This document shows positions 509 to 9,577 of a DNA stretch of 10,159 nucleotides, one piece after another (position 1 is the stretch's first letter; every line of letters starts with the position of its first letter). The position numbers and the translations under genes were made by a program. The notes below the pieces were generated by a model that was not told the origin of the DNA, ran no database searches, and was given only the letters and a program-made list of their open reading frames with translations. The DNA is taken from IMG/VR virus record IMGVR_UViG_3300042564_004235. One strand, 5' to 3'. The stretch comes from a virus (taxonomy: Duplodnaviria > Heunggongvirae > Uroviricota > Caudoviricetes).

Positions 509-1537
509 ATGAGTGACGCAGCAAGAGAACTATTAGATGAATTTAATGAAGGAAATTGGGATGAAGTTGGCTCGTATTTCAACGACGACTTTAGTTTATT
601 TTTAGATTATTTAGAAAAAAATGGTTTAGAAGGAGAATTAGATTATGAAAGGGTTGACGACGAGTGGCAAAATATAATATTACTTCGTAAATTAGAAAAA
701 TACCCTCAAGAAACATTAAAATATATTTGTGATAATATAATTACAGACGTTTATCCAATGGAAGATGGGTATTATCTGCATTTAAACGATAGGACAGAAT
801 TGGCCGATTTATTTAAAACATATGGTAGAGACACTTCACCGTATGATGTTGCAAGGGCTGTTTTAGGTGAAGATTATTGGGAACCTTATTGGGACACAAC
901 TGATGACGTTTATAGAGATGTTATTGATGATTTAAATGAGGAAAATAAAAATCATTTAGCAAATTATATTGTAAAAAATATTGGAGATCAAGAACTACCA
1001 CTTGATGATTATGAAGACGCACTATTTCACCAATTTTCAGAAGAACAAGGAACTGAAGGTGTTTTTAAAATAACAAGTGAAAATGTAATGAAATTTATTA
1101 AGGATGAAGAAGCAATGAAAGAAATGTTCAGAAAAGACCTTGATGAATTAAAAAGTGAATTATATTCCATTCATAATAATGCATATAACGGAGCATATAC
1201 TGATGAAATATATAATAATGTTTGGAATGAACTTTCAGGATATTTTGAACCAAAATCATGGAAATACAATGAAAAAGAAAGATATGATGGTAAAAAAATC
1301 CAACAAGAGTATATTAAAATAAATGATTTTTATAGTGATATTTATACATTTTTAAGTGAAAATGAAGATAAACAGTATAGTGATCAGTCATTAGGATATT
1401 GGGGATCATATACTGGGTTTGTTTCAAATATGATGGATAATGGTGAAAGGGATTGGTTATCTTTTAGAATACCCGATTATCCTGATTGGACAAGAATTAA
1501 AAAGAACATAAATGATATTTTTGTTGATTATATCTAA
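509..1537 (+). CDS. Hypothetical, highly acidic 342-aa protein
   Basis: Long ORF starting 3 nt after the upstream stop, with its TAA overlapping the next ATG (TAATG). 18 of the first 52 residues are D/E and it is rich in Y/W/F. No family recognised and no N-terminal tag. Confidence 0.85.
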   Translation: MSDAARELLDEFNEGNWDEVGSYFNDDFSLFLDYLEKNGLEGELDYERVDDEWQNIILLRKLEKYPQETLKYICDNIITDVYPMEDGYYLHLNDRTELADLFKTYGRDTSPYDVARAVLGEDYWEPYWDTTDDVYRDVIDDLNEENKNHLANYIVKNIGDQELPLDDYEDALFHQFSEEQGTEGVFKITSENVMKFIKDEEAMKEMFRKDLDELKSELYSIHNNAYNGAYTDEIYNNVWNELSGYFEPKSWKYNEKERYDGKKIQQEYIKINDFYSDIYTFLSENEDKQYSDQSLGYWGSYTGFVSNMMDNGERDWLSFRIPDYPDWTRIKKNINDIFVDYI

Positions 1538-2568
1538 TGAAAGTAATAATAACACAAAAACAACTTCAACAAATTAGAGAAAACGCATCTAAAAAATTTA
1601 GTTGTGAGGGTAAGAATTGTGAACATTCTTGGGAGATAGAAAAAAAAGACGAACATCCCTATCTATGTCATATGTGTGGTTATGATTCTGCAAAAGAAAA
1701 ACATAACTACGACGAACTTGAAAACTTTTGGAAGAACTATAAAAAAGAAGAAGAGGTTACAGAAAAGTGGTCAGAGAAATATAAAAAAAGTATTAACTGT
1801 AGTAACCCAAAAGGTTTTTCTCAAAGAGCACATTGTCAAGGAAGAAAAAAGAATTTAAAAGAAGAATTTGAAAAAGAACAATTATTCAAAGAAGTTATTG
1901 AAAGAGATGTGAATGAATATGCATCAAACTATGAGTGGTGTGATGGAATAGAAATTGACATAAGAGAAACTAATTGGTTAACTGAAAAACAAAAACCTGT
2001 TTATGAATACAAAATAAAATTCAAAAACACTTCAATGGTTAGTTATAAAGAACAAGAAAATTTGTTTGATGATATTATGTTTGTTCATACCATGTATTTT
2101 CCTATAGAAGAAAGTGATGTTGATTGTTACATGTCAGTAAAATCAGTTTACCCTAATGGTGATGAAGGAGCATTTCCTTATAGTTATGATAATTATAATG
2201 AACAAATAACAGAATCGGAAGAAAAAGAAGATAAACTAAAAATAAGTGGTTACGACTTAGATAAAATAAAACAAGCCCTTCAAATGTTATCTCAAGTTTC
2301 TGAATCTGTTGGAGAATTTGTTCCATTAGAATTTAAACTTTATGGGTATCAGTTAAGAACCAACGATTTTGGTAAAAGACTAGATCTATATATTGATGTT
2401 GATAAAGATGGTGATGTTTATAATACTATGAGTAGAATTTGGTATGAAATAGGGCAGCAGTTATTAGAAATATTTCAAATGTTAGGGATTAGAGATGAAA
2501 GATATATGAAACCTATGTATGATTTTAAATTTAATAAAAGACCACTATATAATATTGAAACTGTTTGA
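1537..2568 (+). CDS. Tagged multi-module protein: leader, C4 zinc-ribbon-like module, basic KWS..CxNPKGFSQRAHC module, two acidic modules
   Basis: Begins MKVIITQKQLQQIRE. Contains C23-x4-C28...C44-x2-C47 and KWSEKYKKSINCSNPKGFSQRAHCQGRKK (aa 77-105). Coupled to the upstream gene by TAATG. Confidence 0.8.
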   Translation: MKVIITQKQLQQIRENASKKFSCEGKNCEHSWEIEKKDEHPYLCHMCGYDSAKEKHNYDELENFWKNYKKEEEVTEKWSEKYKKSINCSNPKGFSQRAHCQGRKKNLKEEFEKEQLFKEVIERDVNEYASNYEWCDGIEIDIRETNWLTEKQKPVYEYKIKFKNTSMVSYKEQENLFDDIMFVHTMYFPIEESDVDCYMSVKSVYPNGDEGAFPYSYDNYNEQITESEEKEDKLKISGYDLDKIKQALQMLSQVSESVGEFVPLEFKLYGYQLRTNDFGKRLDLYIDVDKDGDVYNTMSRIWYEIGQQLLEIFQMLGIRDERYMKPMYDFKFNKRPLYNIETV

Positions 2569-2595
2569 TTATTCAAAAAAGAATTTATATATTTG
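2564..2595 (+). promoter_or_regulatory. Bacteroidota primary-sigma promoter (-33 TTTG / -7 TAnnTTTG)
   Basis: TTTG at 2564-2567, 20-nt spacer, TATATTTG at 2588-2595, upstream of ATG 2631. Matches the Bacteroides/Flavobacterium consensus and its 19-21 nt spacing. Confidence 0.75.
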
Positions 2596-2630
2596 TACTA
2601 TTATAAATCATTTAAAAATAAACAAAAATT

Positions 2631-2882
2631 ATGGCAACAAAATCAGGAAACAAAGGACGTTACATTTGCAAAGTTGGTTATTTAGACATCTACGCTAAAG
2701 ATAGTTTAAAACCTAAAAAAGAAACTAAATATAAGTTTGTTAAGGCGGATGTTAAATCTACGGTTTATAACATTTTACATGGTAAAAAACTGACAACCGC
2801 TAATCTAAAAACAAAAGATGAAGCAGTTGCCAAGGCGATAGAATTGATGGGTGATAAGGCGGCACTTTACGGGTTAATTTAA
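2631..2882 (+). CDS. Small basic hypothetical protein (83 aa) in its own transcription unit
   Basis: Lys-rich ORF with an A-rich leader and no SD, flanked by a host-type promoter and an intrinsic terminator. No family recognised. Confidence 0.8.
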   Translation: MATKSGNKGRYICKVGYLDIYAKDSLKPKKETKYKFVKADVKSTVYNILHGKKLTTANLKTKDEAVAKAIELMGDKAALYGLI

Positions 2883-2900
2883 ACCCATCTAATATATAGT

Positions 2901-2940
2901 AAAAAGGTCAGGACGAACTCCTGACTTTTTTTGTTTTTTT
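2901..2940 (+). terminator. Rho-independent terminator
   Basis: Stem GTCAGGA (2907-2913) / TCCTGAC (2919-2925), loop CGAAC, followed by a long T tract and preceded by an A tract (possibly bidirectional). Confidence 0.85.
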
Positions 2941-2942
2941 AG

Positions 2943-2949
2943 TATTTAT
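2943..2949 (+). promoter_or_regulatory. TATTTAT motif 4 nt before the start codon; candidate phage late promoter or initiation element
   Basis: Lies between the terminator and ATG 2954. The same motif has the same 4-nt spacing at 7938-7944 (ATG 7949) and 5-nt spacing at 10052-10058 (ATG 10064). The 7-mer is common by chance in AT-rich DNA, so only its position supports the call. Confidence 0.4.
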
Positions 2950-2953
2950 TATT

Positions 2954-4465
2954 ATGGAGTTTAAAAAACGTGATTTATTGGTAGAAGACAATAGTGAAGA
3001 GGGAATCTTTAAAAAAGTGATGTCTAAATTAAAAGACGTTAAAGATAGGGCGCAATCCGAAATAAAAGAAACAAGAGCGTTAGTTAGAATATTAACTCAC
3101 GCAGTAAAATCATACGCAAAAGATAGAGAATTTGATTTAAACAAGGAAGATAAAGATTTTATCAAAGGACAATCCGCCGATGTTATAAGAACATTAGTTT
3201 TAACTATTGTTGCTATAATACCAATACCAATTCCATTAACACCATTTCTAATTATATTTGGAAAAAAAATCGGAATAGATTTAACACCAAAAGAACAAGT
3301 GATACCTGATAAAGGAAAACCAAAAAAAGATAAGATAGAAGAATCAAAAAAATTAAACATTATAATATCGGAAGAACAATATAATATTTTAAACGAAGTT
3401 GTTAAACCAAAAAATATTATATTATCGCTTTGTAAAAGACAAAAAGAACGAAACATATATTGTGATTTATATGATTTTTATTTAACTCTTGATCCTGAAA
3501 ATACACAACCGACTTTAGAGGCCACAATTGAAGAATTAAACGACTATTTTAAATACAAAAAAGTTGGTATGTTTCCAATACTTGTTAAATTAGCTCTTCA
3601 GAATAAAGAAAAAACTGTATCATATTTAAAACTGATTTCTGAATTTATAGATAGAAAACAATTTGATAAGACAGAAACAAAAAGAATAATAAACAAACAA
3701 AGAAACAGGACGGATATTTCAGTTAAAGATGTTGAACAATTGGCTAAAGATGCCAGAAGATTAGAACATCAAAAATATGAAGAAAGGTTTCACGGAGACT
3801 ATTTCAAAAAGAAATCAACATTTTTAAGACTAAATTATTCTTGTGATGATGATGTTAAAGAGAGTTTGTTCAATATTCTTACAAGAGTTGGCTCAAAAGA
3901 AAGGACAATAGATGAAGTTTTTGAACAAGTAAAAAGATGTATTTTACAAACATTTGATAAAGGAATATATTATGTCAAGGCGGATTTAGAATCCACATCA
4001 AATTTTGTTTGTAGTGGAGAAACAATTTTTAATGCCGGCAGCAACTTTGAGGTTAAAAAAATGGATCCATTTGTTGATAGTTATTTATCTGAATTTTTAT
4101 CAATCTTCAAAGAAACAGAAAAAATTCAATTTAAAGGAGAATACATAGGAATTTATAATGAGTTAATTCAAAGATTATATGAATGGCTTATTTCTTCAGA
4201 AGAGGCTAATGCGTATATAGAAAAGGTGAAGTCTCAAATAACAGGAATCATTTACGAAAATGATATAATAGTTCCAATACAATATATAGATTTATACTGG
4301 TCTAATAAAGGTCAAAGAGGTTGTGACGAAAAAAGATTGTCAATAAGATTTAAAATAAAAAATGATGTGGGGAGTGAAATACAAACATATAGATTTATTA
4401 ATAGTAACGAATTATCGCTCGTAACTAAAAAAGTCTCAACATCACAAAAAATAGTTTGCCCATGA
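2954..4465 (+). CDS. 503-aa fusion protein: LETM1-like hydrophobic domain, internal copy of the leader tag, possible PD-(D/E)xK nuclease-like C-terminal region
   Basis: aa 36-112 (EIKETRALVRIL...LNKEDKDFIKGQSADVIRTLVLTIVAIIPIPIPLTPFLII) resembles, from memory, the LETM1-related segment. aa 134-148 LNIIISEEQYNILNE matches the tag. KAD344...E366-V-K368 fits a D...ExK motif. The stop TGA overlaps the next ATG (ATGA). Confidence 0.7.
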   Translation: MEFKKRDLLVEDNSEEGIFKKVMSKLKDVKDRAQSEIKETRALVRILTHAVKSYAKDREFDLNKEDKDFIKGQSADVIRTLVLTIVAIIPIPIPLTPFLIIFGKKIGIDLTPKEQVIPDKGKPKKDKIEESKKLNIIISEEQYNILNEVVKPKNIILSLCKRQKERNIYCDLYDFYLTLDPENTQPTLEATIEELNDYFKYKKVGMFPILVKLALQNKEKTVSYLKLISEFIDRKQFDKTETKRIINKQRNRTDISVKDVEQLAKDARRLEHQKYEERFHGDYFKKKSTFLRLNYSCDDDVKESLFNILTRVGSKERTIDEVFEQVKRCILQTFDKGIYYVKADLESTSNFVCSGETIFNAGSNFEVKKMDPFVDSYLSEFLSIFKETEKIQFKGEYIGIYNELIQRLYEWLISSEEANAYIEKVKSQITGIIYENDIIVPIQYIDLYWSNKGQRGCDEKRLSIRFKIKNDVGSEIQTYRFINSNELSLVTKKVSTSQKIVCP

Positions 4466-5430
4466 AAATAATATTAACTGAAACACAATATAAAAATTTG
4501 ATGGAGGGATTAGCTGATGATGATGTATTCAGAGACACCATTAAAGGTTATGAATCTACAGTTACGGATTCAAGTGGACAACATTATACTTTTGATGATA
4601 AAGACCCAAAAAATCCGAAGACTTTTGTTAAATCATCTGCAGATAAAAAAGGTGGAACATTAACAATTGGTTGGGGACATACAGGGGAAACCGCAAAACC
4701 AGGTAAAAAAATATCAAATAGTAATGCTGAAGAATTATTAACAAGTGATATAACAAAAGAAGAAAATAAGGCAAAAACAATTTTTCCTAAGTATACTTCA
4801 TATCCACTATATGTACAAAGAGCGTTAGTAAATGCCGTTTATAGGGGAGAAGCGAAAAGTACATATGAATGGGTTAAGTCGGTAAATTCGGGTAAATGGA
4901 TTACCGCGGCAAAAGAATATTTAGAAGGTTGGGACATTGATTTTTCTCAAGCAAATAATCCAAAATATAAAGGGGGCGTTGCCGACAGAATGGTTACTAA
5001 CCAAAAAGCCTTTGAAAAATACGGAGAAGAATTAAAAAAAGGTAAAACAACCACGACCACCACAAAAAAAGAAACCACCACAACTGAATTAACATATTCA
5101 ACAGAAGGTATAAGTTATATAATGTTAGAAAACGAATTGGCGAGTTTAACTGCCGGAAAGAAATACAAAGTTCACCGATTCCCTAAAGATAGTTTTTTTG
5201 ATTTTAGATTAGAAGTTGGTCCATACCCACCATCAAAAAAAGAAGGTAGGTATTTAGTTTTTTTTAGAAATGGTGTTATTAAATGGTATAATGGAAATGA
5301 ATTCTCAGGAAGAGGTAGTTGGGGATATAATATAGATCAGAATAAATGGAGAATAATAGGTAAAAATGGAGAAATAAGTTTATCTACCGCTATCAATAAT
5401 CCCGTTAATAATTTTGCAAACGTAGCATAA
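4462..5430 (+). CDS. Tagged GH24 (T4-type phage lysozyme) muramidase with Thr-rich linker and unknown C-terminal domain
   Basis: ATG 4462 (ATGA overlap) is preferred over TTG 4456 because it begins the tag MKIILTETQYKNLME. Lysozyme motifs: IKGYE31, YTFD45D46, T68IGWGH, AEELLTSD, ALVNAVY, VNSGKWITAAKEYL. Linker TTTTTTKKETTTTE. Confidence 0.8.
   Translation: MKIILTETQYKNLMEGLADDDVFRDTIKGYESTVTDSSGQHYTFDDKDPKNPKTFVKSSADKKGGTLTIGWGHTGETAKPGKKISNSNAEELLTSDITKEENKAKTIFPKYTSYPLYVQRALVNAVYRGEAKSTYEWVKSVNSGKWITAAKEYLEGWDIDFSQANNPKYKGGVADRMVTNQKAFEKYGEELKKGKTTTTTTKKETTTTELTYSTEGISYIMLENELASLTAGKKYKVHRFPKDSFFDFRLEVGPYPPSKKEGRYLVFFRNGVIKWYNGNEFSGRGSWGYNIDQNKWRIIGKNGEISLSTAINNPVNNFANVA
5047..5088 (+). 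repeat. Low-complexity Thr-codon run encoding an interdomain linker
   Basis: aca acc acg acc acc aca aaa aaa gaa acc acc aca act gaa encodes TTTTTTKKETTTTE. Confidence 0.7.
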
Positions 5431-6000
5431 ATGAAAGTAATACTAACTGAAGCACAATATAGAAGACTCACTGAGGAAAACCTTAGAGAGTTTTTGTATT
5501 CATTTTGGGACAACCAAAAAAGACAAGGTGAAGACCCATCTTTAGATGACATTATATTTCAGGTTACCAACATTATAAAAGGTAGTAGCGATGACCACAG
5601 AACAATTAGACCAATATGGTATGAATATAATGGAGGGTATGATGTGTTACTAAAAAAAATAGATGAAGAATTTTTAAATAAAGAGTTTCATTTAGAGGGT
5701 AGTGAAAATCTTAAAATGGATTTCAAAATTGATGGTATTGAATCATATGGTGAAGACGTATATGGTGGAATGGTTGACATTATTTGTCAAATATTGGATG
5801 GAACTGTTGATGGAAACTTTTATAATCAAGAAACTGAAGAGATGGAAATGGTTCCTAACATGTATATTGGAGATCAATACGCCGAATTAGAATACGATAC
5901 AGGAGATTTTGAAACTTTTTTAAGAGACGAGATACAAAGTTTTTTGGATCCCATAATGGAAAGGTATGGAATACCTTATCATCTTGAAATGCTTGTATAA
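5431..6000 (+). CDS. Tagged acidic hypothetical protein (189 aa), probable distant paralogue of 6000-6551
   Basis: Starts MKVILTEAQYRRLTE immediately after the upstream TAA. About 42 D/E versus about 16 K/R by manual count. Confidence 0.85.
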   Translation: MKVILTEAQYRRLTEENLREFLYSFWDNQKRQGEDPSLDDIIFQVTNIIKGSSDDHRTIRPIWYEYNGGYDVLLKKIDEEFLNKEFHLEGSENLKMDFKIDGIESYGEDVYGGMVDIICQILDGTVDGNFYNQETEEMEMVPNMYIGDQYAELEYDTGDFETFLRDEIQSFLDPIMERYGIPYHLEMLV

Positions 6001-6551
6001 TGAAAATAATAATAACAGAAAGACAGTATAAGATTTTAGAATCACAACAAGACGACGATCGTGTTGCGATGAAAGCACTTCACATTATTTGGCAAGATGA
6101 AATCGATTCAACAGGAGAAATTGATTTTGATCCAAAGATTGTAGATTACATAGGTTATAGACCAAAAGGAGGAGTTCATGAAATGTATAGAGACTTTCTT
6201 GGTGGTTGGGACAATATGGTTGAAAAATCATATGAACTAATGGATAGGACTTTTGATACTATGGATTATGATTTTAGGGGAGGATATGATTTTAGATTCA
6301 CAGTCCAAGGTAATAATGACTATGAAGAAGATAATTCAACATATGTTGATTGTCCAATTAAAAGTGACGGAAAAGTAACATTAATGACAGATGGTGAAAC
6401 ACATTTGTTAAGTGAACTTGAAGAAAATTATGATATGTGGTGGGAAGTTGAAAGTGAGATTAGATCACTGATTGAAGATATTTTATATAAAGAAGTTACA
6501 AAGAAAACAGGAATACTTGTTGAAGTAAATATGTGTTGGATAAAAGAATGA
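6000..6551 (+). CDS. Tagged acidic hypothetical protein (183 aa)
   Basis: Starts MKIIITERQYKILE with a TAATG overlap. About 42 of 183 residues are D/E by manual count. Confidence 0.85.
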   Translation: MKIIITERQYKILESQQDDDRVAMKALHIIWQDEIDSTGEIDFDPKIVDYIGYRPKGGVHEMYRDFLGGWDNMVEKSYELMDRTFDTMDYDFRGGYDFRFTVQGNNDYEEDNSTYVDCPIKSDGKVTLMTDGETHLLSELEENYDMWWEVESEIRSLIEDILYKEVTKKTGILVEVNMCWIKE

Positions 6552-6952
6552 AAATAATAATAACAGAAAGTCAGTATAAAATGTTGTTGGAATCAAATAC
6601 AGATTCCATGCAAAGTCTTATTGACATGGCTTTTGATCAGGTAAAAGAAAATTGTGAAGGTGGGTATTATATTAGATCACATCAAAATCTTATTTGTGAC
6701 CCTGTAGATATGATTGAAGAAATTAAAGTAGTGGACGTATCAAAAGTAACATCTATGGATTATTTTGAAAAAAATAAAATGGATGTTATACACATAAAAG
6801 TTAATTGTTATGTTGACTCAATATACGAATATAACAATTTAGATAACTTTATTTATGAACTACAAGCAGAGGCAAGAAACATTATTGGTGGTAGATTCAT
6901 TACTATAGAAATAGGAGAAATAATTAATAAAAGAAAAGACTTCAATTGGTAA
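6548..6952 (+). CDS. Tagged hypothetical protein (134 aa)
   Basis: Start reassigned from 6533 to ATG 6548 (ATGA overlap), which begins the tag MKIIITESQYKMLLE. Confidence 0.85.
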   Translation: MKIIITESQYKMLLESNTDSMQSLIDMAFDQVKENCEGGYYIRSHQNLICDPVDMIEEIKVVDVSKVTSMDYFEKNKMDVIHIKVNCYVDSIYEYNNLDNFIYELQAEARNIIGGRFITIEIGEIINKRKDFNW

Positions 6953-7326
6953 TGAAAATAATAATAACAGAATATCAGTATAACTTACTTCAAGAAACCT
7001 TTGGTAGGGATAGGTTTGATGCTGAATATGCCGACGAATACCCAAAGTATAAAGGTATGTTTATTAACTTAATTAAAATGGAAATCACCGCATCGGGACA
7101 GACGGAAGATTCTATATTATTGGGTGATTCGGATGGTAAAATTTTGGTTAGTTATAGGAAACCTAGTCGTACTCTTTATTATGATTATAATTGGGGTGAA
7201 GATATTGAAAAGTTAATGCCTTGGCATATTTATAATAGACATTTTAAATATGCATTATTTGATTTTTTTAAATCAATTTTTCCTGATGCTGCAATAAAAG
7301 AAGTAAGAGGTGCTCACGTAGCGTAA
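6952..7326 (+). CDS. Tagged hypothetical protein (124 aa)
   Basis: Start reassigned from TTG 6946 to ATG 6952 (TAATG overlap), which begins the tag MKIIITEYQYNLLQE. Confidence 0.85.
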   Translation: MKIIITEYQYNLLQETFGRDRFDAEYADEYPKYKGMFINLIKMEITASGQTEDSILLGDSDGKILVSYRKPSRTLYYDYNWGEDIEKLMPWHIYNRHFKYALFDFFKSIFPDAAIKEVRGAHVA

Positions 7327-7334
7327 TATTAAAT

Positions 7335-7946
7335 ATGAAAATAATAATAACAGAAGAACAATTTAATAAGTTACAAGAAAGTGACAAGGATTTTAACAAA
7401 ACAAAAACTCTTGTCAACTCTATGTTTGAACAAGGATATAGTATTGATGACATACTTAAATTTACTGGTTTAGATAAAGATGTTGTTATAGTGTTATTTT
7501 ATGACCGTGAAATTATAAAAGACCAAATAGAAGAAAGTATAGATAAATATGAATACTTATATCACTTACTTTGGGATGGTGAATTATTAAATAAAACACA
7601 CAAATACGAAGACGGATCAATTGCTATTATTGGGTTTGATCGTTTTTCGGGGTCAATTCATTTTAATTATTTGTCAGAAGGTTATGAACTAAGAGGTTAT
7701 GCGACGTTATTTTGGGAGTATGACCCAAAGTTACCAATAGATATTAGTCAGTTTTTTGATATTGATGATACTGAATATGATGTGGATGGTTCTGAACACT
7801 CAAGTGTCGATTTAAGAACAGATGAAAAATTTAATAATATTAGAACATTAAGACAGTTAGTTGATTATTTTAATAATGATTATTATATTATGTTAAAAGA
7901 AGAATTGGATCCTTTATTAAAAAGATGTATAAAATACTATTTATAA
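7335..7946 (+). CDS. Tagged acidic hypothetical protein (203 aa)
   Basis: Starts MKIIITEEQFNKLQE, 8 nt after the upstream stop. D/E- and Y/F-rich. Confidence 0.85.
   Translation: MKIIITEEQFNKLQESDKDFNKTKTLVNSMFEQGYSIDDILKFTGLDKDVVIVLFYDREIIKDQIEESIDKYEYLYHLLWDGELLNKTHKYEDGSIAIIGFDRFSGSIHFNYLSEGYELRGYATLFWEYDPKLPIDISQFFDIDDTEYDVDGSEHSSVDLRTDEKFNNIRTLRQLVDYFNNDYYIMLKEELDPLLKRCIKYYL
7938..7945 (+). promoter_or_regulatory. TATTTATA motif before ATG 7949; candidate phage-specific promoter
   Basis: TATTTATAACTA here is identical over 12 nt to the minus-strand sequence starting at 10039 upstream of the 40-aa ORF. Confidence 0.4.
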
Positions 7947-7948
7947 CT

Positions 7949-8206
7949 ATGAAAACCTATAGACAAAACCTTAATCTTTGGTTAGAACAAAAAAAGAACT
8001 CAAGTGAGAACAATGAGATTAAAAACATTTTATCTGAAGTTCAAAAACATATTAAAAACATTGAAAAAGAGGAAGAACATATGGTTAATAACGCATATGA
8101 ATCTGGATATTACGATAAGGAGTTAAATAGAGGTAAAAAAGGAAATTATTACCAACAAAACTTCAAAATGCATGATAAACTTAAACAATTATTAAATTTA
8201 AATTAA
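7949..8206 (+). CDS. Small hypothetical protein (85 aa) resembling a common Bacteroidota-phage family (MK..WL...EKE..I.NAY..G...YY...F)
   Basis: ATG 7949, just past the upstream stop at 7946 and 4 nt after TATTTAT, is preferred over 7925. Family resemblance is from memory only. Confidence 0.65.
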   Translation: MKTYRQNLNLWLEQKKNSSENNEIKNILSEVQKHIKNIEKEEEHMVNNAYESGYYDKELNRGKKGNYYQQNFKMHDKLKQLLNLN

Positions 8207-8207
8207 A

Positions 8208-8522
8208 ATGGAAATAACTACACAAGAATTAGAACAAAAAATACAAAACGGAGAAAAGGTAATAGTAGAGATGTGGGCACCTTGGTGTGGTCCTTGTAGA
8301 ATGTTAAAACCTGTATTTGAAAAAGTTGCTCAAAACAATGATACTGATGTTCAAATGTATACATTAAACATTGATGAAAATAGAGACACTGCTATTAAAT
8401 ACGGAGTGAGAAGTATACCAACAATTAAAGTTTTTGATGGAGGAGAGGTTAAAGAAACCAGAGTTGGTGTGATTGCAGAACAAAGTATTAAAGAATTAGT
8501 TTCAAACCTTTTATTAAATTAA
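8208..8522 (+). CDS. trxA: Thioredoxin
   Basis: 104 aa with the WAPWCGPC active site, the cis-Pro motif VRSIPT and the C-terminal RVG..A. Confidence 0.95.
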   Translation: MEITTQELEQKIQNGEKVIVEMWAPWCGPCRMLKPVFEKVAQNNDTDVQMYTLNIDENRDTAIKYGVRSIPTIKVFDGGEVKETRVGVIAEQSIKELVSNLLLN

Positions 8523-8787: not shown

Positions 8788-9540
8788 ATGATGAACTTAG
8801 AACAACTTAAAAAACAGGCACCTTCAGTATTCGCTACACAAGCGTCACCTTCAGTATCTAACCAATACGTATTCGTCCCTACAATGGATATTTTGGAGAA
8901 CTTCCAAAACGCAGGATGGGAAATTGCATCCGCAAGACAAACAGGTAGAACACAATACGGAGTACATGAAATCCGTTTACGTAACGGAGAATTACCAAAG
9001 GTAGGTGACACGTTGGTTGAAGCAATCATCCGTAACTCTCACAACGGTATGTCAACTCTTAGTGTGAGTGCTGGACTACACCGACTTGTATGTTCAAACG
9101 GACTTACAGTACCAACATCAACGGCAGAGTCATTCAGGGTAAAACACCAAAGATTTGAACTTGACGACGTTAAAAGACTTACAGAGTCATTCGCATCTAA
9201 ACTACCAAAGATTGAGATGTCAGTAAATCGCATGATGGAGAAAGAACTATCTACTGATGAGAAGATTGATTTTTTACGTAAGTCTACAGAGGTGAGATTT
9301 GGTCAAAACAAAGTATTGACGGATTTAGAAATGGTTGGTCTATTAGCACCAAACAGAAAAGAAGACGAGGGGGACGATTTGTGGAGAGTATTAAATGTAG
9401 TACAAGAGAAGTTCGTCAGAGGAGGGGTGGAAATGTCATCACCAAAAGGACGAAGAACTAAACTCAGAGGTCTACAAAACATAATGGCCCTAAACAAAGT
9501 GAATACAAAACTTTGGGAGTTGGCCGAGGAAATGATATAA
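8788..9540 (+). CDS. DUF932/DUF945-family protein (YafZ/YubP-like)
   Basis: Motifs PSVFA..S..Y.F.PT..IL...GW, H.IRLR and NSHNG.S.....AGL.RLVCSNGL match my recollection of the DUF932 family. Confidence 0.8.
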   Translation: MMNLEQLKKQAPSVFATQASPSVSNQYVFVPTMDILENFQNAGWEIASARQTGRTQYGVHEIRLRNGELPKVGDTLVEAIIRNSHNGMSTLSVSAGLHRLVCSNGLTVPTSTAESFRVKHQRFELDDVKRLTESFASKLPKIEMSVNRMMEKELSTDEKIDFLRKSTEVRFGQNKVLTDLEMVGLLAPNRKEDEGDDLWRVLNVVQEKFVRGGVEMSSPKGRRTKLRGLQNIMALNKVNTKLWELAEEMI

Positions 9541-9544
9541 AAAG

Positions 9545-9577
9545 AAATGGGGGTCAATGACCCCCATTTTTGTTTTA
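9545..9577. terminator. Bidirectional intrinsic terminator between convergent genes
   Basis: Stem AAATGGGGGTC (9545-9555) / GACCCCCATTT (9559-9569), loop AAT, with a T tract after and an A tract before. Lies between the stops at 9540 (+) and 9584 (-). Confidence 0.9.

Follow-up and report, generated by a model that had tools for sequence, protein, structure and literature searches.

The 10,159-nt stretch of viral DNA analysed here (IMG/VR record IMGVR_UViG_3300042564_004235; Caudoviricetes), referred to in its full length as the window, has a GC content of 27-37% and a densely coding plus strand, on which lies an array of genes whose products share a short peptide tag of about 15 residues. 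Seven genes carry the tag at their very start and an eighth copy lies inside a fusion open reading frame (ORF). The tagged genes and the fusion ORF are located as follows.

1537..2568, plus strand: tagged gene 1, 343 residues, acidic, with a Cys-rich, Zn-ribbon-like N-terminal part; tag codons 1537-1581 (MKVIITQKQLQQIRE)
2954..4465, plus strand: fusion ORF of 503 residues, with a hydrophobic N-domain (residues 1-112), a Lys-rich linker, an internal tag and a C-domain of ~350 residues without a fold match
3353..3397, plus strand: internal, Met-less tag copy in the 503-residue ORF, found by motif scan (KKLNIIISEEQYNILNE; LNIIISEEQYNILNE)
4462..5430, plus strand: tagged gene 2, 322 residues, composed of tag, phage-lysozyme domain, Thr-rich linker and C-terminal domain; tag codons 4462-4506
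5431..6000, plus strand: tagged gene 3, 189 residues, net charge -26; tag codons 5431-5475
6000..6551, plus strand: tagged gene 4, 183 residues, net charge -23; 14-residue tag, 6000-6041
6548..6952, plus strand: tagged gene 5, 134 residues; tag codons 6548-6592
6952..7326, plus strand: tagged gene 6, 124 residues; tag codons 6952-6996
7335..7946, plus strand: tagged gene 7, 203 residues, net charge -18; tag codons 7335-7379

A first-pass annotation of the window had described seven ORFs (at 1537, 4462, 5431, 6000, 6548, 6952 and 7335) that start with MK[IV]I[IL]T[EQ]xQ[YFL]xx[LI]xE, with the copy at 6000 one residue shorter. Both descriptions were confirmed, the short copy having its Glu at position 14 and the copy at 1537 having Gln in place of Glu at position 7. 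Scanning all six frames of the window for the motif recovered these seven starts and the single internal copy, all eight on the plus strand and in the coding frame, and none in the other frames or on the minus strand. All eight copies finish in [LI]-x-E, and the orthologues of gene 1 in three related contigs (G001, G002 and G008) keep [IL]-R-E at positions 13-15, with Q or K at position 7.

The bodies behind the tags form a mixed set. Gene 2 encodes a phage lysozyme (PF00959, E 2.9e-10) and has an orthologue of 80% identity in the related locus L001. No other tagged protein of the window gave a significant Pfam match, and none matched internal-protein or head families in Pfam or PHROG. The five small cargos have net charges of -26, -23, -9, -2 and -18, and an all-against-all BLASTP comparison of the cargo bodies of the window returned nothing below E = 0.1. 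For the 189-residue cargo, fold searches in PDB and BFVD gave no informative match, the one BFVD match of its model being an uncharacterised phage protein of 183 residues (E 4.5e-8). The assertion that the cargos are unrelated holds at the sequence level (BLASTP, Pfam), but the BFVD match makes a remote structural kinship of some acidic cargos possible. The annotation was also right to separate the tag from a Sec signal, since it has just three aliphatic residues ahead of Thr-Glu and a charged amphipathic helix, and no hydrophobic core; the hydrophobic core of 7-15 residues after a basic N-region that characterizes Sec, Tat and lipoprotein signals is absent from the tag.

To see what is conserved in the tag, we collected 181 distinct N-terminal tags from IMG/VR loci. 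Information content was high at positions 1-10 (of which 1-7 and 9-10 were partly set by the search pattern) and at position 13, and fell to background beyond positions 15-16, which bears out the earlier observation that similarity ends right after the final Glu. At position 13, which the search pattern left free, Leu or Ile was found in 93% of tags. The tag opens with a few mostly aliphatic residues (K-I-I-I-T), continues as an amphipathic helix (E-x-Q-Y-x-x-L) and usually has a [LI]-x-E end. Synonymous codon use in the 181 tags equals that of the gene bodies, Ser8 is encoded by both TCN and AGY codons, and Leu/Ile13 is reached via at least six codons. Because codon use in the tag matches that of the bodies and Ser8 draws on two codon boxes, selection on the tag acts on the peptide and not on the DNA.

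Structural models place the tag outside the fold of its cargo. In the family of the 189-residue protein, which comprises 112 clusters, the tag is as well conserved as the fold core, with an indel just past the tag. The AlphaFold model of the window member (pLDDT, the predicted local distance difference test, 91) shows residues 1-14 as a low-confidence, unpacked extension. The internal tag of the 503-residue ORF sits within residues 113-152, which have a pLDDT of <50 and lie between two domains in the AlphaFold model. The tag is accordingly predicted to be structurally exposed, as a non-packed extension or a linker.

The tag is essentially confined to viruses. Its DNA pattern was found in at least 120 IMG/VR stretches as compared to five short contigs of metagenome-assembled genomes (MAGs) in 185,579 prokaryote genomes, and four of these five contigs resemble the phage contigs described here. 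A profile search of 1.84 billion proteins yielded 181 cluster representatives at E <=0.001, nearly all of which match at residue 1. The top profile match, P0233 (3,967 residues, 14 stretches), was rejected as a false positive, being a low-complexity E/L/S/D-rich protein without real tags. A literature search with tag strings found no paper containing them; the principle of a T4-like capsid-targeting sequence (CTS) is known, and we found no paper that describes the shared tag of this phage lineage.

Comparison with relatives revealed that the leader is a modular, swappable tag. Among 150 tagged proteins, Pfam identified 14 lysozymes, six LysM proteins, two SleB-type hydrolases, three DHH proteins and two M78 peptidases, as well as one sigma-70 factor, one CCA/polyA polymerase and one HD protein; cell-wall hydrolases are common among the cargos and most of the proteins have no family. 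The closest near-complete relative, contig G008, carries four leader classes: class A, MKIIITExQY, the tag of the window, on 13 genes; class B, MKRIIRLTESDLxRIVKRVIKE, on eight; class C, MKxLIKxILKEES, on seven; and class D, xIITEEEK, on three. Together these account for ~10% of its ORFs. Classes B, C and D occur on unrelated proteins in the relatives (G001 L019-L022: 12354-14750, 19050 and 36448-38375; G008) and are not found in the window. The swappability follows from a pair of orthologues (7781 in G001 and 231220 in G008) whose bodies are 83% identical from residue ~20 onwards and which bear different leader classes. Likewise, a DHH protein has a class A tag in G008 and none in its G001 orthologue (66% identity).

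The same element also occurs inside proteins. The N-domain of the 503-residue ORF is a separate ORF of 145 residues in G008, and two other relatives (G003 and G004) encode its C-domain by itself, behind an N-terminal tag. The internal tag is kept as K[KR][LI]NII[ILV][ST][ED]xQ in dozens of homologues. Elsewhere in the relatives, neighbouring tagged genes are fused into one reading frame that retains the tag at the joint, as would be expected of a processing site. One ORF of 995 residues consists of the N-domain, a tag, a zincin-like module, another tag and the C-domain; in other relatives the C-domain is extended by a tag and the 189-residue cargo, or by a tag and a lysozyme. We also detected tandem double tags at the start of some proteins, with a Lys run between them, tag-KKK(K)-tag (P0234, P0235, P0238 and P0242), and fusions of the C-domain to an Fe/Mn superoxide dismutase without a tag. 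Neither the ~350-residue C-domain nor the whole 503-residue ORF had an informative match in PDB or the AlphaFold database clusters. The C-domain (homologues of window 3404-4462; P0179-P0232) has the behaviour of a carrier or anchor shared by several partners. The simple model of an N-terminal leader, as first proposed, hence describes the seven N-terminal copies but does not cover those behind a hydrophobic domain and at fusion joints.

No near-identical GenBank phage was found for the window by megablast, and protein-guided scans recovered IMG/VR relatives with matching gene order and tags. CheckV completeness of these relatives implies a genome size of ~300 kb. G008 (281 kb, 96% complete) is syntenic with the window: a 342-residue ORF (55% identity), the Zn-ribbon gene, an 83-residue gene, the hydrophobic N-domain as a separate ORF, and the families of 189, 183, 134 and 203 residues are all collinear. 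This synteny with a T4-like contig identifies the window as viral; it would be part of an uncultured T4-like phage of ~280-320 kb. No head genes lie on the five related fragments nearest to the window. The host is probably a member of the Bacteroidota, as suggested by the absence of Shine-Dalgarno-like motifs before any of 15 window genes, by the type of promoter (TTG...TAnnTTTG) 5' of the 83-residue gene, and by mis-binned tag-bearing fragments in Flavobacterium and Saprospiraceae MAGs. The capsid protein of G008 shares 42% identity with its counterparts in Flavobacterium phage immuto and Microcystis phage Mel-JY01, and 25% with RB69 gp23.

The relatives also supply a head protease. The head module of G008 comprises a large terminase (TerL), a portal, a Peptidase_S77 protease and a gp23-like major capsid protein, and G008 and three further tag contigs of ~270-320 kb all encode a gp21-type S77 protease together with a gp23-like capsid protein. 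The protease was present in four of the four tag-bearing contigs that are >=96% complete and in two of the four that are 53-75% complete. The predicted co-occurrence with a gp21-like protease was seen in these near-complete relatives, from which a protease of the window phage itself is extrapolated. The first-pass annotation had further asked whether the tag marks head-core, scaffold or major-head precursors, and in G008 the answer was negative, as no protein of its head module bears a leader of any class. Another relative, the 269-kb contig G009, has two S77 protease genes (31291-34973; 233494-237944), each adjoining a gp23-like capsid gene; in the second pair the capsid protein is 38% and the protease 41% identical. 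This double pair could be a set of vertex-protein paralogues or a chimeric assembly.

Several features suggest which site this protease may cut. In an alignment of capsid proteins, F-L-T-E|A-E-I-G-G-D of RB69 gp23 lies opposite L-I-N-E|A in the tag contigs G006-G009, and I-V-S-E|A of the immuto capsid protein lies opposite the same L-T-E|A, the maturation cut site of RB69 and T4 gp23. An [LIV]-x-E site is thereby retained where the propeptide of the capsid protein ends. The S77 proteases have an invariant L14-x-E16, comparable to the LIE-9 site of T4 gp21 (PMC9026906). From these alignments, the head protease of this lineage probably still cuts after the Glu of [LI]-x-E. Such a site is enriched in class A tags: 43% of the 181 tags have [LI]-x-E with Glu15, compared to 1.3% at random positions in the bodies; the proportions are 68% compared to 6.8% if Glu is allowed at 14-18, and 74% compared to 14% for 12-22. 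The residue past the tag Glu is mainly Ser, Asn, Asp or Ala. A further site of this kind is I-T-E at positions 5-7, which is nearly invariant; classes B and D have [IL]-T-E, and the class B and C leaders of G008 show [ILV]-x-E by eye. Loss of Glu7 was not significantly compensated by [LI]-x-E at 12-22 (8/10 compared to 119/158). When the S77 protease of G008 was co-folded with the first 45 residues of one of the tagged proteins of this contig, the score was 0.00, below the mark, a value that weighs neither way on binding.

Putative promoter elements may link the tagged genes to those of the virion. Two features of the window lie just ahead of the fusion ORF.

2901..2931, plus strand: intrinsic-terminator-like hairpin with T-run, closing the 83-residue gene
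2943..2949, plus strand: promoter-like element TATTTAT, its 5' end 11 nt before the ATG at 2954

The next plus-strand terminator after 2931 is at 9543, and the transcription unit containing the tagged array probably begins at the TATTTAT at 2943. Among the upstream 7-mers of G008, none is more enriched than TATTTAT (61/161 upstream regions, 7.4-fold); (A/G)TATTTAT(A/T) occurs 10-26 nt 5' of 66 ORF starts, where positions -16 to -14 hold A or T only and nothing resembles a -35 element. Within 40 nt upstream, it precedes 18 of 31 tagged genes compared to 56 of 285 others in this contig. At canonical spacing it also stands before the head protease, head-module ORFs, a head-tail adaptor-like gene and a collagen-like fibre gene, and before none of eight genes of replication and nucleotide metabolism, among them those for DNA polymerase, UvsX, DnaB, SNF2, thymidylate synthase and RNA ligase. 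This distribution of a sequence motif would be in keeping with late expression of the tagged genes alongside those of the virion. The T4 late-promoter consensus TATAAATA was tried as a candidate and rejected, being unenriched in the window (5 compared to 2.5 expected) and leaving the head genes of G008 unmarked.

Many small genes of G008 are framed by a terminator, the motif and the ATG, an arrangement that leaves room for very short 5' leaders or none. The 83-residue gene of the window (2631-2882) is a unit of its own within 2565-2935, with a Bacteroidota-type promoter-like TTG ... TAtaTTTG and the strong intrinsic terminator at 2901-2931; it is conserved in G008 at 271757-272008 and has no Pfam match. 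TATTTAT also occurs in the window at 7938-7944, and the ORF at 7925-8206 probably begins at its second ATG (7949), 11 nt past the 5' end of this motif. The product from this ATG would begin MKTYRQNL and resemble the start of the T4 IPIII capsid-targeting sequence (MKTYQEF), a likeness that may be coincidence. On the 3' side of the array lie a thioredoxin gene (PF00085, E 1.7e-26; 8208-8522) and a DUF932 gene (E 1.2e-25; 8788-9540), a region where GC climbs to 0.35-0.37, followed by a bidirectional terminator (9543-9571) and two minus-strand ORFs. In G008 (64957-67734 and 125986-128853; 232076-233284), the portal gene has an HNH-endonuclease-like insertion, the SNF2 helicase gene gives LAGLIDADG/Hint (intein-like) matches, and a TnpB (IS605 OrfB) gene lies amid the tagged genes.

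The closest known parallel is found in T4. The T4 capsid-targeting sequence is a 10-residue propeptide, the sole element common to the diverse internal proteins of T-even phages; it takes them to the scaffolding core and is cleaved off by gp21 (PMC3012670; PMC9026906). An Asp at P1 of the T4 site prevents cleavage but still allows targeting (PMC9026906). The tag resembles that of IPI, IPII, IPIII and the Alt propeptides in being a short N-terminal peptide on diverse proteins with a [LI]-x-E end, in its company, in near-complete relatives, of a gp21-type S77 protease and a gp23-type capsid, and in the location of the cargo genes in variable regions (PMC3012670, PMC9026906). However, it has another sequence, 15 instead of 10 residues and at least four swappable classes, and it is found on ~10% of genes; its cargos are mostly acidic or enzymatic, with internal and tandem copies and polyprotein-like fusions, and its role is a putative one. 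Membership in the T-even internal-protein families is unsupported, given the different tag sequence and the lack of any Pfam or PHROG family match, so that the tag is at most an analogue; the sequence distinctness contained in the original description as "analogous but sequence-distinct" was confirmed.

Other systems share single traits. Cargo-loading peptides of encapsulins are short, exposed and transferable and send unrelated enzymes into a shell of HK97 fold; unlike the tag, they are usually C-terminal and uncleaved, bind the shell itself and have no role in injection. The PeSL cassettes of T4-type phages reportedly consist of small accessory genes framed by a stem-loop and a promoter-like element (Arbiol et al. 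2010 are said to have described them). A similar framing by terminator and motif would favour gene shuffling in the present phages; in contrast to PeSL, which acts at the DNA level, the conserved element here is a peptide, and the single-element promoter-like motif has no -35. In the giant phages phiKZ and SPN3US, a T4-related head protease processes propeptides and ejection (inner-body) proteins, cutting at (S/A/G)-x-E. Abstracts on these phages report jumbo heads with many proteins, several of which are cut after Glu and ejected (PMC5694885, PMC7411985, PMC10052503), and describe no shared leader; these phages belong to another lineage, and it is the uniform tag that is striking here.

Whether the tag is a detachable, T4-like capsid-loading tag that is cut off in the head is, in our judgement, an evenly balanced question. 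This reading is plausible because the tag is real, is maintained at the protein level, is exposed, swappable and virus-specific, and occurs in genomes with a T4-type head protease and a conserved T4-type cut site in their capsid protein. By analogy with the T4 capsid-targeting sequence, the tagged genes would be co-expressed with the virion genes, and the exposed tag would bind the scaffolding core of the prohead and carry lysozymes, other cell-wall hydrolases, phosphoesterases and acidic proteins without a known fold inside. There, the gp21-type S77 protease would cut after the Glu of [LI]-x-E (Glu15 in most tags, possibly also I-T-E at 5-7), which would free the cargo within the head and part fused modules, and the cargo would exit with the DNA upon infection. 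Core binding, cutting, packaging and ejection are all modelled on T4. A wider proposal, in which at least four swappable "address and cut" tags of T4-like jumbo phages, located at gene starts, in tandem and at fusion joints, load about a tenth of the proteins for injection, seems to us a reasonable possibility that falls somewhat short of an even chance.

Several observations speak against capsid loading. A tblastn search with a 31-residue tag in 50,697 GenBank phage records had no match, so that no cultured relative with the tag was found there, and Flavobacterium phage immuto has an annotated S77 protease and lacks the tag. One tag copy follows a hydrophobic, membrane-like domain, which is awkward for a head-internal protein, and tags on ~10% of the ORFs of G008 would amount to a large payload. 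The cargos are acidic, whereas the internal proteins of T4 are basic (PMC9026906). Just 43% of tags have Glu15, and [LI]-x-E is missing at 12-22 in 26%; the proteins of the G008 head module lack leaders; the protease of the window phage is deduced from its relatives; and TATTTAT also stands 5' of the TnpB gene, whereas some structural genes have none.

Alternatively, the tag could be recognised or processed by a phage protease or some other phage factor, parting polyprotein-like chains and releasing or activating their modules in the cytoplasm or at the membrane, unrelated to capsid loading. The internal copies at fusion joints and in the disordered linker behind a hydrophobic domain, the tandem tags preceded by a Lys run and the enrichment of [LI]-x-E are all consistent with such a site. 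We nevertheless consider it unlikely, since in most cases (181 of 189 copies) the tag begins a protein with a single module, so that there is nothing to part, and T4 gp21 cleaves within the prohead (PMC9026906). Docking to another hub, such as a chaperone, the host RNA polymerase, the membrane or an unfoldase for which the tag would be an N-terminal degron, would suit an exposed, short and amphipathic peptide on ~10% of genes in several swappable classes. Moreover, the Met-basic-hydrophobic x3 start of the tag resembles a reported ClpX N-terminal recognition class. The motif is, however, virtually absent from cellular genomes, which argues against mimicry of a commonly used host signal, and docking leaves the [LI]-x-E enrichment and the T4-type head context unexplained; we regard it as distinctly improbable.

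A signal in the nucleic acid, either a translation-initiation enhancer for (nearly) leaderless mRNAs of a host that does not rely on Shine-Dalgarno sites or a recombination handle by which cassettes are shuffled, with the peptide as an incidental product, could account for the lack of Shine-Dalgarno-like motifs before all 15 window genes and for TATTTAT 11-24 nt before many tagged ATGs, and many tagged genes of G008 are preceded, as judged by eye, by a terminator-like hairpin, a T-run and the motif. Such a signal is very unlikely, as synonymous sites vary as in the rest of the genome, with two codon boxes for Ser8 and at least six codons for Leu/Ile13, and as the Met-less internal copies are conserved as peptide; gene shuffling may be a by-product of the framing but cannot explain amino-acid conservation. 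Least credible, with hardly any chance in our view, is a single fast-diverging paralogue family with the N-terminus as the slowest-evolving part of a common fold. The tandem arrangement and the BFVD match of the 189-residue model to a 183-residue phage protein could be taken in its favour, but the cargos belong to unrelated Pfam families, their bodies have no BLAST similarity, the tag lies outside the fold, and classes are swapped on 83%-identical bodies. Plain paralogy is thus refuted for most cargos.

If the tag does load capsids, dozens of proteins per genome and at least ~180 public protein clusters would be marked as head-packaged, injected effectors. This would provide a sequence-readable list of candidates for host takeover and anti-defence in the first minute of infection, most of them without a known fold, and the injected proteome of a whole clade, including hydrolases, phosphoesterases and a sigma factor, would become readable straight from the genome sequence. 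The T4 capsid-targeting principle, applied there to a handful of proteins, would be widened to a modular system that spans the genome and takes in polyprotein precursors, and the leader would offer a naturally occurring means of bringing foreign proteins into large capsids. Should it turn out not to be a capsid tag, a large clade of phages would still have, on ~10% of its genes, a virus-specific targeting peptide under strong selection.

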